Below, one piece after another: positions 26,924 through 32,869 of a stretch of 61,450 nucleotides of DNA. A model generated the notes under the pieces. The model was given only the letters and a program-made list of their open reading frames with translations, made no database searches and had not been told where the DNA came from. Source of the DNA: Betaproteobacteria bacterium. Its GTDB lineage: Bacteria > Pseudomonadota > Gammaproteobacteria > Burkholderiales > SG8-41. Numbering within the stretch: position 1 is the first letter of the stretch; the number at the start of each line of letters is the position of its first letter. The position numbers and the translations under genes are program-made. The DNA is taken from NCBI GenBank assembly GCA_016202605.1, contig JACQOJ010000145.1, forward strand, positions 1 to 61,450, written 5' to 3'.

Positions 26924-28093
26924 ATGAGCGAGAGGTCAGCTGCGACGATAACGATCGGAATCGTCGCAGGAGAGGCGTCAGGAGACCTGCTGGGTGCGCA
27001 CCTGATGCGGTCACTGGTTGCGCATATGCCCCACGTGAGTTTCGCAGGCATCGGGGGTCCGGAAATGCGGGCAGCGGGCATGCAGGTCCTGTTTCCCATG
27101 GAAAGACTCGCAGTGCGCGGCTACGTTGAAGTCCTCCGCCACTATTTCGAGATCACAGGCATCCGACGCCGGCTCGCACGGCATTTTCTTCGAGAACGCC
27201 CGGCATGCTTCATCGGCATCGATGCCCCCGATTTCAATCTGGACCTCGAACGCAGGTTGAAGGACGCAGGAATTCCGACCGTTCACTACGTGAGCCCCGC
27301 AATCTGGGCATGGCGCGGGCGGCGCATTCGCGAGATCAAGCGCGCGGTGAGCAAGATGCTCACCTTGTTTCCCTTCGAGGCGCGTCTTTACCAGGAGGCA
27401 CAGGTGCCGGTCGCCTACGTCGGGCATCCCCTGGCCGACATCTTGTGGGATTTCCCGGGCAGGCAGGCGATCAGGGAGCGGCTGCATCTGCCGGCCGGCG
27501 CACGCGTGGTGGCGCTGCTTCCCGGCAGCAGGGTCAGCGAGCTGGAGCAGATGGCCGATCTTTTTCTCGCTGCAGCGCGCAAGGTTGCGGAGGCCGTTCC
27601 AGGCACGAGATTCGTTGCGCCGCTCGTGAATCGTGAAACGCAGGAGCTTTTCGAGGCAGCCCTTGACCGGGTCCGCGGCGAAAAACCCGCTGTCACGGTT
27701 CTGCGGGGCCGGGCCCACGAGGCCATGGCTGCCGCTGACGTCGTCCTTGTCGCCTCCGGTACCGCCACCCTCGAGGCGGCGTTGCTCAAACGACCGATGG
27801 TGATTACGTACCGGATGCCGCGCATCTCGTGGTGGATCATGAACAGACTTCGCTACCAGCCATATGCCGGCCTGCCTAACATCCTCGCGGGCGAATTCAT
27901 CGTTCCGGAGCTGCTGCAACAGCAGGCCACGCCGGATAATCTTGCCCACGCAATATTGAACCTCCTGTTTGACGACGCGCAGCGCGAGCGGCTCGAAGCA
28001 CGGTTCGGTCGGATACTCTCGGAACTCAGGCAGAACACCGCTCAGAAGGTGGTCGAGGCGGTACGTTCCACGCTGGGCGGAGGCGCGGCATGA
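26924..28093 (+). CDS. lpxB: Lipid-A-disaccharide synthase
   Basis: [32 protein letters not shown] and SGTATLE motifs. Confidence 0.96.
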
Positions 28094-28680
28094 GTGAAGG
28101 AGTCCGGACCTGTGGTGTCGACGAAGCAGGTCGCGGACCGCTGGCAGGGCCGGTGTATGCTGCGGCGGTCATTCTCGGCGACGACGCCATCGATGGACTG
28201 GCCGATTCGAAAAAGCTTTCGCCCGGGAGACGTGAGGCACTGGCGGCGCAGATCATGGCGCGCGCCGTGGCGTGGTCGGTGGCGAGCGCGAGCGTGGATG
28301 AGATCGACACCACCAATATCCTGCGTGCGAGCCTGCTGGCCATGCGTCGTGCCGTAAACGGGCTTGCGGTAGCACCCCGGCAGGTGTTGGTGGACGGCGT
28401 GCATTGTCCGGAAATCGACTATCCCGTGCTGGCCGTCATCGGTGGCGATGCGAGTGTTGCTGCGATTTCCGCGGCGTCGATCCTCGCCAAGGTCGCGCGC
28501 GATGCGGAAATGCTGAGGCTTCACAATCGCTATCCGCAGTACGGATTCGACGCGCACAAGGGATATCCCACGGCCGGGCATTTGGCCGCATTGCGTTTGC
28601 ATGGGGTATCCCCGGCGCATCGGCGCAGCTTCGCACCGGTGAAGCGGATCCTCGATTCACGGGCGCCCGAGGCGGGCTGA
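28090..28680 (+). CDS. rnhB: Ribonuclease HII
   Basis: [30 protein letters not shown] and HKGYPT motifs. Confidence 0.96.
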
Positions 28681-28727
28681 GGCCGACCGGGGTCGCACGA
28701 GGGCGCACGACGGAAGAGCCATGAAAA

Positions 28728-28861
28728 TTGCATGTCATGGTTTACGTCGGGGTGGTGATGGCCTTGATCTTCGCATACGTGTTTTTTTCCCGTTTGCGGT
28801 GGCGGTCAACCTGGCTCCCGGTCTTGCACATATGGCCGTCGCGGCAGCGGGGTCCGTGTAG
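28728..28861 (+). pseudogene. Possible frameshifted remnant of a CopD/COG5615-like membrane protein C-terminus
   Basis: One frame reads HVMVYVGVVMALIFAYVFF. After the T7 run (28782-28788) another frame reads PFAVAVNLAPGLAHMAVAAAGSV*. From memory these resemble the last two helices of that family. Confidence 0.35.
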
Positions 28862-28863
28862 CG

Positions 28864-29811
28864 TCAGGAAATTTCAGCCAGCAGCTGGGCGAGCTTGCTC
28901 GATTCCAGTCGCGGACTCACGAGATGACGGCGCGCGGCGCATTGGGCGCCGAGCAGCCGGTAGAAGACCAGGTCGGATTCGGCACGCCAGAGCAGCCGCG
29001 CCAGGGCCTTTTCGTTGCCGACCGGATAGAAGCCTGCGTAATCGCGGCCAAGCATTCCGATGTTTCCCGGGATTCGCGATGCGATCACCGGCACGCCGGC
29101 AGACAACGCCTCGGATACCACGTTCGCGCCGCCTTCCATGCGGGAACTGATGACCATCAGGCGCGCACGCGCCAGCCTGCGCAGGGCAATCCAGTGCGGC
29201 AGATTGCCGAGCCAGCGATAGCGGGGTTCACGCGCCATCCAATCCCGCGCTTCGCATTCCATTTCCCCGCTCATCGCGCCGCCCATGTGCACGATGTGAA
29301 TGCGGCTCTTTTCCGGCAAGTAGGCCGCTGCGGCGGCCGCCCGGAAAGGGTCTTTCTCGGCGCGCAGGTGGCCGCTCACCACCACCTCGAAGCGGTGTTT
29401 GAGCGACGGCCGCCTCGGAATCCGGGGCACCGACTGGTAGATGACACGGGTCTTCGCCCGTAACGCGGGGGAGAGCTCTCTTGGCGCCATGTCCTGCAGC
29501 ACGATCATGCGGTCCGCCATCCGCATCGATTCGCGGGCGCTGTCATCGACACGGATGTCGTGGTAGAGATCGGTTCCAGTGAGCGCCAGTATCAACGGAC
29601 GGGCGGGCAGTACGCGCTTGAAATGCTTCAGTGAATCGTGACTGCGGCGGGCATGCAGGGCGATCACGAGATCCGCGGGCGCGCCGTCCCACGACACTTG
29701 CACCGTTACCCGGTGACCCAGTGCCCGCAGCAGGCCTGTCCAGCGCATGGCGGTGTTGCGATTGCCGTGGCGGGAGCGCGCCGCCGCGGGAGTTACGATT
29801 ACAATGTTCAC
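28864..29811 (-). CDS. senB: SenB-like selenosugar synthase (TIGR04348-type GT-B glycosyltransferase)
   Basis: IVTP..SRHGNRNTA.RW, IALHARRS, LTGTDLY, GHLR.EKDP and SRMEGGANVVSEA motifs. GTG start at 29811. Confidence 0.85.
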   Translation of the reverse strand: MNIVIVTPAAARSRHGNRNTAMRWTGLLRALGHRVTVQVSWDGAPADLVIALHARRSHDSLKHFKRVLPARPLILALTGTDLYHDIRVDDSARESMRMADRMIVLQDMAPRELSPALRAKTRVIYQSVPRIPRRPSLKHRFEVVVSGHLRAEKDPFRAAAAAAYLPEKSRIHIVHMGGAMSGEMECEARDWMAREPRYRWLGNLPHWIALRRLARARLMVISSRMEGGANVVSEALSAGVPVIASRIPGNIGMLGRDYAGFYPVGNEKALARLLWRAESDLVFYRLLGAQCAARRHLVSPRLESSKLAQLLAEIS

Positions 29812-29866
29812 GTCCGACGATCCGGGATAAACTGCGATCGAACTATAGCAAAAACGCGCGCCGACG
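29812..29866. promoter_or_regulatory. 55-bp divergent promoter region of senB/senA
   Basis: Minus strand carries TGCTATAGT (extended -10-like) and plus strand carries TAAACT. The spacer is so short that the promoters must overlap. Confidence 0.4.
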
Positions 29867-31222
29867 ATGTCAACGCATGTTATCGACACCATCGCCATAC
29901 GCGACATGCTGCTTGCAGCGCGTACTCGCACGTTATCGTTGTGCGCTGATCTGGAGGGTGAACGCCTGCTGGGACCCAGGCTCTCGATCGTCAACCCGCC
30001 GCTGTGGGAAATCGGCCATGTCGGCTGGTTCCAGGAGCATTGGTGCTTGCGCTACCGCACGGACGGGCGGCTCGCGCCGTCCGTCCTCTCCAACGCGGAC
30101 GATCTCTACAACTCCGCCGCGGTCCCGCACGATACGCGTTGGGATTTGCCGCTGCCGGATTTTGACGCAACGCTCGCCTATCTCCGGCGGGTACTCGACG
30201 GCGTGCTGGAGCGAATTGAACTGGAGGGTGCCACGGAGCACATGGCCTACTTCGCGCAACTCGCCGCGTTTCACGAGGAAATGCATTGCGAGGCATTCAC
30301 CTATACCCGGCAGACCCTGGGCTATCCGGCCCCGCGCACTTCGGATGCGCCGACTTCCGCGCAGGCCGGCGCGTGGCCCGGAGACGTCGAGATCTCCGGT
30401 GGTGTTTTCAGGCTGGGTGCGACGCAGACCGACGGTTTTGTCTTCGACAATGAAAAGTGGGCGCATGAGGTCGAGGTGGGCGCATTTCGCATGGCGCGTG
30501 CCCCGGTGAGCAATGCGGAGTTTGCCGCATTCGTCGAAGACCACGGATATCGGCGGCGGGAACTGTGGAGCACTGCGGGCTGGGAGTGGCGCAAGCGGAC
30601 GGGGGCGCAAGCCCCGGTGTACTGGATCGGAAAAGACGGCGCCTGGTTCTACCGGCACTACGATGAAGTTATTCCGGTCGCGCCCCGCATGCCGGTGATA
30701 CACCTCAACTGGTTCGAGGCGGAAGCGTATTGCCGCTGGGCTGGGCGCAGGCTGCCGACCGAGGCGGAGTGGGAGTTCGCCGCCGCAACTATGCCGGGAT
30801 CTTTCGGTGCCAAGAGGCGCTACCCATGGGGCGACGCGGCGCCGTCACCCGCTCTGGCGAACCTCTACGGGGCAACCGGAGGGTGCGTGGACGTGGCGGC
30901 ATTTCCGTTGGGCGACAGCGGATGGGGCTGCCGGCAGATGTTCGGAAACGTGTGGGAGTGGACCGCCGATTGGTTTGAGCCGTATCCGGGATTCGTGCGC
31001 GATCCGTACAAGGAATATTCGGAACCCTGGTTCGGGGATCACAAGGTGCTGCGCGGAGGGTGCCACGCGACGCGCCCCGTCCTCCTCCGTAACACATGGC
31101 GCAACTTCTACACCCCGGATCGGCGCGACGTATTCGCCGGTTTTCGCACCTGCGCGCCTTTCGATGGAAACGCGCGAGCCCTTTCGCGGCATGTTTCCGC
31201 GCGCGAGCCGTCCGCGCCGTGA
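29867..31222 (+). CDS. senA: SenA-like non-heme iron selenoneine synthase (EgtB family; DinB + FGE-sulfatase domains)
   Basis: NPPLWEIGHVGWFQE, iron-binding FHEEMHCE (HxxxHxE), YTRQTLGYP, FDNEK, RLPTEAEWE, GNVWEWT, VLRGG and RNFY...FAGFR motifs. Adjacent to a senB-like gene. Confidence 0.82.
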   Translation: MSTHVIDTIAIRDMLLAARTRTLSLCADLEGERLLGPRLSIVNPPLWEIGHVGWFQEHWCLRYRTDGRLAPSVLSNADDLYNSAAVPHDTRWDLPLPDFDATLAYLRRVLDGVLERIELEGATEHMAYFAQLAAFHEEMHCEAFTYTRQTLGYPAPRTSDAPTSAQAGAWPGDVEISGGVFRLGATQTDGFVFDNEKWAHEVEVGAFRMARAPVSNAEFAAFVEDHGYRRRELWSTAGWEWRKRTGAQAPVYWIGKDGAWFYRHYDEVIPVAPRMPVIHLNWFEAEAYCRWAGRRLPTEAEWEFAAATMPGSFGAKRRYPWGDAAPSPALANLYGATGGCVDVAAFPLGDSGWGCRQMFGNVWEWTADWFEPYPGFVRDPYKEYSEPWFGDHKVLRGGCHATRPVLLRNTWRNFYTPDRRDVFAGFRTCAPFDGNARALSRHVSAREPSAP

Positions 31223-32043
31223 AACTCATTACGTCGCGTGCCAATGCCGTTTTCCGGGCGCTCGCGCGACTCAAGGAATCGCCGCGTCACCGTCGCACCG
31301 AGCACGCCACCGTGATCGACGGTGCGCATCTCGTTTCCGCCTACCTTGAGAGACTCGGCCATCCGCAAGCGGTGGTGGTGACGGCTGCGGCCGCGGAATC
31401 GCCTGAAATCAGGGCACTGCTCAAGCGTGTGGCGCCGCTCAATCCGATCATGCTGAGCGAGGCATTGTTTCGGGAGGTCTCACCGGTCGCCGCTCCGGCG
31501 GGAATTCTCGCGGCGATAGAGATTCCTGCCGCCCGCGCGCCGCTGCGCGAAGCCGAGTGCTGCCTGCTGGTGGAGGATATACAGGATCCGGGAAACTTGG
31601 GCTCGATCCTGCGTTCCGCGGCGGCGGCGGGCGTCGAGCAGGTGCTGTTATCCAAGGGCTGCGCCGATGTATGGTCACCGCGCGTCCTGCGCGCGGGAAT
31701 GGGCGCGCATTTTCTCCTGAATCTCGCAGAGCGCGTCGACTTGTCCGCATTCGCCAGCGAGTATCGGGGCCGGATCGTGGCAACGGCCGCAAATGCATCG
31801 AATTGTATTTTCGATGTGGATCTCACGCAGCGGACGGCGTTCGCGGTCGGCAATGAAGGAGCAGGATTGTCGGGCGGCCTCTTGCGTGCTGCTCACGTGG
31901 TGGCCGCAATTCCCATGCGGGACGGTGCGGAATCGATCAATGTAGGCGCGGCAACCGCGGTGTGTCTGTTCGAGCGCGTCAGACAGATACGATCGACCGC
32001 CGGGACGGAAGCGGCGGACCGCCCCCCGCGCCGCTCGTCGTAA
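31219..32043 (+). CDS. TrmH/SpoU-family RNA methyltransferase
   Basis: IQDPGNLGSILRSA, VLRAGMGAHF, VGNEGAGL and ESINVG motifs. GTG start overlaps the senA stop (GTGA). Confidence 0.92.
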   Translation: MKLITSRANAVFRALARLKESPRHRRTEHATVIDGAHLVSAYLERLGHPQAVVVTAAAAESPEIRALLKRVAPLNPIMLSEALFREVSPVAAPAGILAAIEIPAARAPLREAECCLLVEDIQDPGNLGSILRSAAAAGVEQVLLSKGCADVWSPRVLRAGMGAHFLLNLAERVDLSAFASEYRGRIVATAANASNCIFDVDLTQRTAFAVGNEGAGLSGGLLRAAHVVAAIPMRDGAESINVGAATAVCLFERVRQIRSTAGTEAADRPPRRSS

Positions 32044-32044
32044 G

Positions 32045-32869
32045 TCAATAAATCCGCCGCACGAGCTTCGCTTCGTGCAGGATGGTGGTCGCCAGTTCCT
32101 CCACCGACTTGCTGGTCGCGTCGAGAAAGGGGATCCCTTCCTGGCGCATCAGGCCTTCGGCTTCACGCACTTCGAACTCGCAGTTCGCCAGGTTCGCGTA
32201 CATGCTTCCGGGGCGGCGCTCGTTGCGGATCTGTTGCAGCCGCGCCGGCCGGATCGTGAGGCCGTAGAGACGCTTGCGCAGGGGGCGCAGCTGCGCCGGC
32301 AGCCGCATGGTGCTGAAGTCTTCCGGAATGAAAGGGTAGTTCGCGGCGCGGACGCCGTACTGCATCGCGAGATAGAGGCAGGTGGGCGTTTTGCCGCATC
32401 GGGACACTCCCACCAGAATGACGTCGGCTTCGTTCAAATCGCGGTTTGAGACGCCGTCATCGTGGGCGAGCGCGTAGTTGACGGAATCGATGCGGTGATA
32501 GTAGTTGACCAGATCGCTGACGCTGTGACTGCGCCCGATTGCGTGCGATGCTCTGACCCCGAGTTCCTTCTCCAGCGGCGAAATAAAGATTTCGAAACAG
32601 TCCAGAAAAAGCGCCTCCGCCCTGCTCACGACATCGGCGATTTCGCTGTTCACCAGGGTGCTGATGACGATCGGACGCGCGGCATCCTTGCGGGCATGCT
32701 CGTTGATCTGACTGACCACCTGACGGGCTTTTTCTACCGAGTCCACAAACGGCAGCGTGACTTCCTGGAAACGGACGGTGTCGAATTGCGTGAGCAGGCT
32801 GTGGCCCAGCATTTCGGCCGTGATGCCGGTGCGGTCCGAAACGAAGAACGCGGTGCGTTTGTCGGTCAT
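32045..32869 (-). CDS. ppsR: PEP synthase regulatory protein (kinase/pyrophosphorylase, DUF299)
   Basis: [33 protein letters not shown] and SVEELA motifs. Confidence 0.93.

Follow-up and report, generated by a model that had tools for sequence, protein, structure and literature searches.

The window analyzed here, a stretch of 61,450 nucleotides, is contig C123 of a betaproteobacterial metagenome-assembled genome (MAG, referred to as G000; 2.8 Mb in 156 contigs, 73.66% complete, 2.5% contamination), and it carries a divergent senB/senA gene pair. Taken together, our results make it very probable that this pair belongs to the known pathway for selenoneine, the genes of which are scattered over the genome here in an arrangement frequent in the lineage, rather than to a new chemistry. 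The senB gene (28864..29811, minus strand; 315 codons with a GTG start) encodes a selenosugar synthase, that is, a selenium glycosyltransferase of the GT-B fold, and senA (29867..31222, plus strand) encodes the non-haem-iron selenoxide (selenoneine) synthase of 451 amino acids. Both open reading frames (ORFs) lie head-to-head, and reading of the sequence confirmed the 55-bp spacer (29812..29866) between the two starts that an initial annotation of the locus had reported. That annotation had also proposed that the pair must borrow its substrates from elsewhere and that, were selD lacking, it could represent a variant route; the gene identities, the absence of senC and egtD from the window and the external origin of the substrates were upheld, but the selD-less route was not.

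By analogy with the characterized enzymes of Variovorax paradoxus, SenB would combine selenophosphate with a UDP-sugar into a 1-seleno-sugar, which SenA would couple to C2 of hercynine, and the selenoxide product would then eliminate spontaneously to yield selenoneine. Hercynine would be provided by a stand-alone EgtD encoded on an unlinked contig (C144), and selenophosphate by a general, selenocysteine-containing SelD that would also serve selA, selB and tRNA-Sec, and whose gene would be missing merely from the 74%-complete assembly.

The SenA assignment was made by profile search, in which the plus-strand ORF 29867..31222 scored 519.6 bits against NF041186 (cut-off 420, E 6e-156), and 336.6 bits against the EgtB model TIGR03440, under its cut-off of 360. 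The protein is composed of a DinB_2 and an FGE-sulfatase domain, and its HxxxHxE motif reads HEEMHCE; the EgtB-family DinB/FGE iron enzyme described initially is thus recovered, and the profile search places it in SenA and not in ordinary EgtB. In the alignment to V. paradoxus SenA (8ryz, 8k5i), the enzyme retains the three His of the facial triad (H71, H167 and H171) together with the catalytic Y363 and with N395, the triad and Y363 being identical to 8ryz_A; the roles of these residues are those given in the available text of PMC11237966. Moreover, the enzyme carries His (in VPHDTRW) and Tyr at the positions of EgtB Arg87 and Asp416, respectively, and the accessible part of a preprint (10.1101/2022.04.13.486033) presents His and Phe/Tyr at these two positions as the signature of all SenA proteins.

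The top PDB scores of SenA were obtained with OvsA chains (8ux5, 309.1 bits; 8u41, 299.7 bits), as compared to 283 bits for V. paradoxus SenA, which would be expected if the iron enzyme were OvsA-like or another NHISS member, selenylating C5 of histidine as in the ovoselenol route, or acting on another imidazole substrate. However, in the best-matching chain, 8ux5, the residues M, Q and A of 8u41 are replaced by Y, N and F, respectively; these positions are the ones altered in the engineered OvsA-YNF variant, described in the available portion of PMC11030361 as behaving like SenA. In addition, the score of V. paradoxus SenA is lower because a loop missing from that protein splits the alignment into two stretches. 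The same source gives the composite motifs Y...N(F/Y)(F/Y) for SenA and M...QAY for OvsA, and the window enzyme has the hercynine motif Y...NFY, not the OvsA residues (M401/Q430/A431). Considering also that the equivalog NF041186 is matched well over its cut-off, that the genome holds egtD, and that the sole nearby methyltransferase is an RNA-type SpoU enzyme, we regard an OvsA-like function as highly improbable.

For SenB, the minus-strand ORF spans 28864..29994, and its match to TIGR04348 opens at residue 64, right after a GTG at 29811-29809; because this GTG directly precedes the match start, we set senB at 28864-29811. The match reached 418.6 bits (cut-off 300, E 1.2e-125, profile positions 1-309 of 310), or 419.1 bits in the whole-genome profile search, with only 101 bits for the second-best glycosyltransferase family; the TIGR04348-type glycosyltransferase named initially is therefore confirmed, and a reading as an unrelated GT4 enzyme is not borne out. 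The protein aligns over its full length to the solved SenB chains 8k5u, 8jjn and 8fbx (~223 bits). In the phmmer alignment (V. paradoxus numbering), the residues of the selenophosphate pocket (N20, H58, R61, T83, T85 and R155) and K158, which cleaves the Se-P bond, are identical to 8jjn_C; alignment to V. paradoxus SenB further showed that T23, Q131, E231 and E239, which bind the sugar and UDP, are kept, and so is D86. These roles, in binding selenophosphate, in breaking the Se-P bond (K158) and in binding the sugar and UDP, are the ones that the accessible text of PMC10891094 assigns to the V. paradoxus residues.

We then considered the partner genes. In agreement with the earlier claim that the window holds neither senC nor egtD, genome-wide searches gave no SelD or EgtD match on C123, and the expectation that both substrates have to be supplied from outside the window was supported by an egtD on contig C144 (C144:3668-4639; 407.9 bits, cut-off 290.9, whole-genome profile search). 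This egtD stands alone, without EgtB, EgtA, EgtC or EgtE beside it, its neighbors being an MFS-like and a PBP-like ORF named from their translations. The search of the genome for selA and selB, which had been recommended together with that for egtD, found both outside the window on contig C48 (587.5 and 443.6 bits, respectively), where a tRNA-Sec is also located (C48:2582-2676); the assembly holds only 18 tRNAs. As selA, selB and tRNA-Sec are present and this machinery cannot work without selenophosphate, the organism needs selenophosphate. The profile search found no EgtB over the 360 cut-off in the same assembly, and a second match to the EgtB model (C149:40283-40834, 98.8 bits) spans the FGE domain only. 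Two weaker matches to the SelD model were rejected as selD, namely C109:7342-8004 (51.6 bits), which is preceded by ribH and nusB and was recognized as thiL, and one on C74 (19.7 bits).

Related genomes were informative as to the likely whereabouts of selD. SelD over the cut-off was found in 8/8 congeners, each with one in-frame TGA and on a contig different from that of senB; in 4/4 congeners examined, the TGA falls at GGG-U-GCK, the catalytic Cys/Sec position. Among 41 genomes, 26 of the 29 that are SenB-positive have SelD, and the three without it are 74%, 76% and 79% complete. An even sample of the order was also assembled, comprising 301 genomes for which at least 90% completeness was required except for our own (298 counted as >= 90% complete and <= 5% contaminated). 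SenB exceeded the cut-off in 107 of them, and 105 of these 107 have SelD, the two exceptions being our own MAG and G129, whose senB is cut by a contig end. The counts over the 41 genomes and the 24 family relatives discussed below include the unpublished genome G014, and those of the order sample the unpublished G049; without these genomes every such figure shifts by one, and none of the conclusions depends on either. Moreover, in three of the four congeners examined (G001, G002 and G006) selD adjoins a GDSL-esterase-like ORF and an ABC ATPase, and these neighbor genes map to C111:142-1419 of our assembly, with C111 ending 141 bp further. Since the neighbors of selD in these congeners map to the very end of C111, selD is most simply explained as falling into the assembly gap off that end, and we infer that the gene is present in the real genome.

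Other SelD forms were encountered among the relatives. The SelD adjoining senB in G031 has Cys at the GGG-U-GCK position, while the unlinked SelD of the family is a selenoprotein (also at loci L122-L125). In two further genomes (G005:C60:4154-5071 and G028:C21:33906-34829), matches to the SelD model of ~290-299 bits lie in long frames (777 and 851 amino acids), possibly representing fused SelD forms; the match in G028 sits 1.3 kb from senB.

Several observations weigh against a dispersed but otherwise known pathway. No selD over the cut-off was found by profile search in any contig of the 73.66%-complete assembly, and tblastn with SelD of two relatives against it gave no match at E <= 1e-3. 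The selD neighbors of the fourth congener examined (G008) map to contigs C133 and C17 of our assembly, so the synteny is not universal, and when metagenome contigs were searched for exact matches to 36 bases of the C111 5' end, 0 were obtained, and hence no bridge to selD. Furthermore, the SenB sugar pocket differs from that of V. paradoxus at two sites, V157 being replaced by E and H235 by N. The absence of selD from the assembly is what would be seen if the organism truly lacked the gene and SenB used another selenium or sulfur donor, or if the pair made ergothioneine via a thiosugar, and with no EgtB over the cut-off in the assembly, SenA acting in sulfur chemistry would make good a missing function. 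Nevertheless, such a variant route conflicts with the incompleteness of the MAG, with the presence of selA, selB and tRNA-Sec, with selD in all eight congeners together with the synteny break at the C111 end, with the near-universal company of SelD in SenB-positive genomes of the order, and with the intact selenophosphate-pocket residues of SenB. Published assays also speak against sulfur substrates: according to the available text of the preprint 10.1101/2022.04.13.486033, SenA used thioglucose very poorly, the sulfoxide thus formed failed to undergo elimination to ergothioneine, and SenC did not convert sulfide to thiophosphate. Altogether, we consider the variant route put forward in the initial annotation very unlikely, and favor the known pathway supplied by an unlinked selD.

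As for the sugar pocket, the sugar-donor motif reads EGGANV, as compared to EGGAHV in V. paradoxus, with E231 and E239 unchanged; the V157 and H235 positions correspond to E150 and N228 of the 313-residue query. The accessible part of PMC10891094 reports that V157 of V. paradoxus SenB contacts the N-acetyl group of UDP-GlcNAc, and that H235 mutants retain partial activity. When ten SenB sequences of the clade were aligned, N was invariant at the H235 site (10/10) and E nearly invariant at the V157 site. Because this alignment takes in one genome with selD adjoining senB, the two substitutions appear to be a trait of the clade, not tied to the loss of senC, and judging from the alignment the SenB proteins of the clade may prefer a UDP-sugar other than that of the characterized enzyme.

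A survey of senA/senB neighborhoods showed that the divergent form without senC is common. The 80 best senB loci of 571 confirmed relatives were compared, a set drawn from species-representative genomes that is biased to close kin and consists of uncultured Betaproteobacteria/Burkholderiales MAGs. The arrangement rnhB-senB<>senA-methyltransferase was found again in the majority of these 80 loci. In 66 of the 80, senA is divergent and directly upstream of senB, and for 62 of these the flanks retrieved contain no SelD, so that 62/80 of the best loci are divergent without a nearby SelD; SelD lies near senB in only 6/80. Housekeeping genes were found on both sides in 37 loci and on one side in 18 more, many loci being cut by contig ends. 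Within the family, the order lpxB-rnhB-senB<>senA-methyltransferase is kept in eleven loci of nine genomes (one of them, L018, from G014). In the order sample, the position of selD is listed for 75 SenB-positive genomes, being within 6 kb of senB in 27 and elsewhere in 48 (one of which is G049); it is unlisted for 30 SenB-positive genomes, and in two of the "elsewhere" genomes there is another SelD match whose position is not listed. The initial annotation had itself named what would mark the pair as the known pathway merely dispersed, namely selD and egtD elsewhere and a common layout, and this is the pattern observed: egtD is on C144, the selD of the congeners is unlinked, and the layout is widespread.

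These figures have a practical consequence, as searches for the three-gene cassette undercount selenoneine producers, given that 48 of the 75 genomes with a listed position have selD at a distance from senB. Related indications can be found in the available text of earlier reports, which give 2,353 TIGR04348 sequences versus 827 three-gene cassettes (10.1101/2022.04.13.486033), and senB in 8.1% and senC in 6.3% of NHISS neighborhoods (PMC13674229), and which note strains with chromosomally separated genes for ovoselenol (PMC11030361). In the literature searched, we found no text describing senB<>senA at the rnhB/methyltransferase site; the supplements of two bioRxiv preprints may show senC-less layouts.

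In seven related loci (L051, L073, L076, L094, L097, L098 and L104), hosted by Sulfurimicrobium, Nitrosomonadales, Hydrogenophilaceae, Thiobacillus and other betaproteobacterial MAGs, senB occupies the same site by the SpoU methyltransferase, mostly near rnhB, with no senA beside it; either SenA is encoded elsewhere in these genomes, or the selenosugar is used otherwise. That SenB can persist without an adjacent SenA would fit a third possibility, in which the two window genes are remnants in decay or no longer expressed, or the selenosugar made by SenB serves something other than selenoneine. This we hold to be very improbable, since both frames are intact with all catalytic residues present, the pair retains 65-77% protein identity and its position across many species, which points to purifying selection, and egtD co-occurs in 23 of the 24 family genomes.

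Two other groups of loci were observed in the survey. In L107, L109, L112 and L115 (Polynucleobacter and other MAGs), a compact senB-egtD-selD arrangement is followed by a distant SenA-like gene, 32-34% identical to the window SenA. Moreover, L052, L063, L064, L069, L091, L093 and L113 are filed under implausible organism names (Bordetella parapertussis, Streptomycetaceae, Streptomyces, Enterobacteriaceae, Rubrobacteraceae) and share at least some of the betaproteobacterial gene order, with the full ppsR-to-lpxB set in L052, L063 and L093, and the divergent senA alone in L091; these labels are probably labeling or binning errors.

The distribution of hercynine-related genes within the family was also investigated. 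EgtD exceeded the cut-off in 23/24 family relatives, and a true EgtB (> 360 bits) was found in only four of the 24 (G014, G018, G019 and G023); high-scoring EgtB fragments were seen in the congeners G004 and G006. Since most high-quality family genomes have EgtD, SenA, SenB and SelD, but no EgtB over the cut-off, the family is suggested to make hercynine mainly for selenoneine. An entire family of Betaproteobacteria, uncultured and from groundwater and soil, appears to retain EgtD for selenoneine and not for ergothioneine. A stronger version, which we put forward tentatively and would rate at somewhat less than an even chance, is that selenoneine is the family's only hercynine-derived antioxidant, with EgtD kept solely for SenA, selenophosphate coming from the selenoprotein SelD, and the sugar preference of SenB perhaps shifted.

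Regarding the genomic context, the pair is flanked by two housekeeping genes: rnhB (28090..28680, plus strand; RNase HII), convergent with senB, and a gene for a SpoU-family RNA 2'-O-methyltransferase of RlmB/TrmH-like type (31219..32043, plus strand; start codon inferred; PF00588 112.5 bits, PF22435 29.4 bits). The rnhB flank given initially was verified (NF000596, 271.8 bits, cut-off 251); for the other flank, the top NCBIfam match, RlmB, reached 88.4 bits and falls under its cut-off of 160, and for that reason "TrmH" is best taken as a loose label for a SpoU-family protein. Further out lie two synteny markers, lpxB upstream (26924..28093, plus strand), named from its translation and the lpxD-fabZ-lpxA context and adjoining rnhB in the loci of relatives, and ppsR downstream (32045..32869, minus strand; NF049928, 411.5 bits, cut-off 350).

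Among five SenB-negative genomes of the order, rnhB is followed directly by the same methyltransferase gene in G033 and G036, and by ppsR in G027, while the other two have neither within 1.5 kb. Because G033 and G036 lack SenB and have the two genes adjacent, the sen pair interrupts an older rnhB-methyltransferase adjacency. Guanine-plus-cytosine (GC) content at the locus is 0.641-0.647, as compared to 0.591-0.650 across the window, and since this is unremarkable and the layout is common to several genera, the event is an old one. A recent horizontal insertion was rejected on the same two grounds; the proposed insertion into a housekeeping locus accordingly stands as an old event, and fails as a recent one given the normal base composition and a layout found across the family and beyond.

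At the 3' end of senA, its TGA stop codon overlaps a GTG, the likely methyltransferase start, in the tetranucleotide GTGA (31219-31222), and tight spacing is also seen in relatives. This overlap suggests that senA is co-transcribed with, or translationally coupled to, the housekeeping RNA methyltransferase gene. An Rfam scan of 28000-32200 gave no match at E <= 0.1, and a promoter scan of 28600-32100 gave 0 sigma-70-like sites (shuffle mean 0.6), hence none in the 55-bp spacer. Six terminator-like sites were counted in 28600-32100 (shuffle mean 2.7), none of them at an interpretable gene end.

Overall, existing curated models are sufficient to name senA and senB automatically, and the parts of the known pathway are all accounted for, so the locus carries little mechanistic weight; its relation to characterized systems is as follows. 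The closest is the V. paradoxus sen cluster (senA-senB-senC), whose SenA and SenB are orthologous to those of the window and share their catalytic and substrate-binding residues, save for V157 and H235 of SenB, where the window protein has E and N. A further likeness is the supply of hercynine by an unlinked EgtD, which the accessible text of Kayrouz et al. (10.1101/2022.04.13.486033) proposes for most clusters. In contrast to that cluster, the window pair has no adjoining senC, so that selenophosphate must come from an unlinked SelD of the selenocysteine type; its senA and senB are divergent and not co-directional, and they sit between rnhB and the SpoU methyltransferase gene. The same preprint text defines the three-gene sen cassette as an egtB homologue, tigr04348 and selD within 5 kb, and no SelD match was found on the whole 61-kb contig; the window pair would work like such a cassette, though outside its definition. 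The ovs genes (ovsA and ovsM with senB/senC, as presented in the available text of PMC11030361) include an NHISS enzyme that is closely related to the window SenA and scores similarly overall, but the window enzyme has Y, N and F where OvsA has M, Q and A, and no OvsM-type methyltransferase was seen nearby. Finally, type I EgtB (TIGR03440; PDB 4x8b) has in common with the window SenA the DinB and FGE fold and the iron triad, with 265 bits to 4x8b, whereas the window protein falls under the TIGR03440 cut-off (336.6 versus 360) and has His and Tyr in place of the thiol-binding Arg87 and Asp416.

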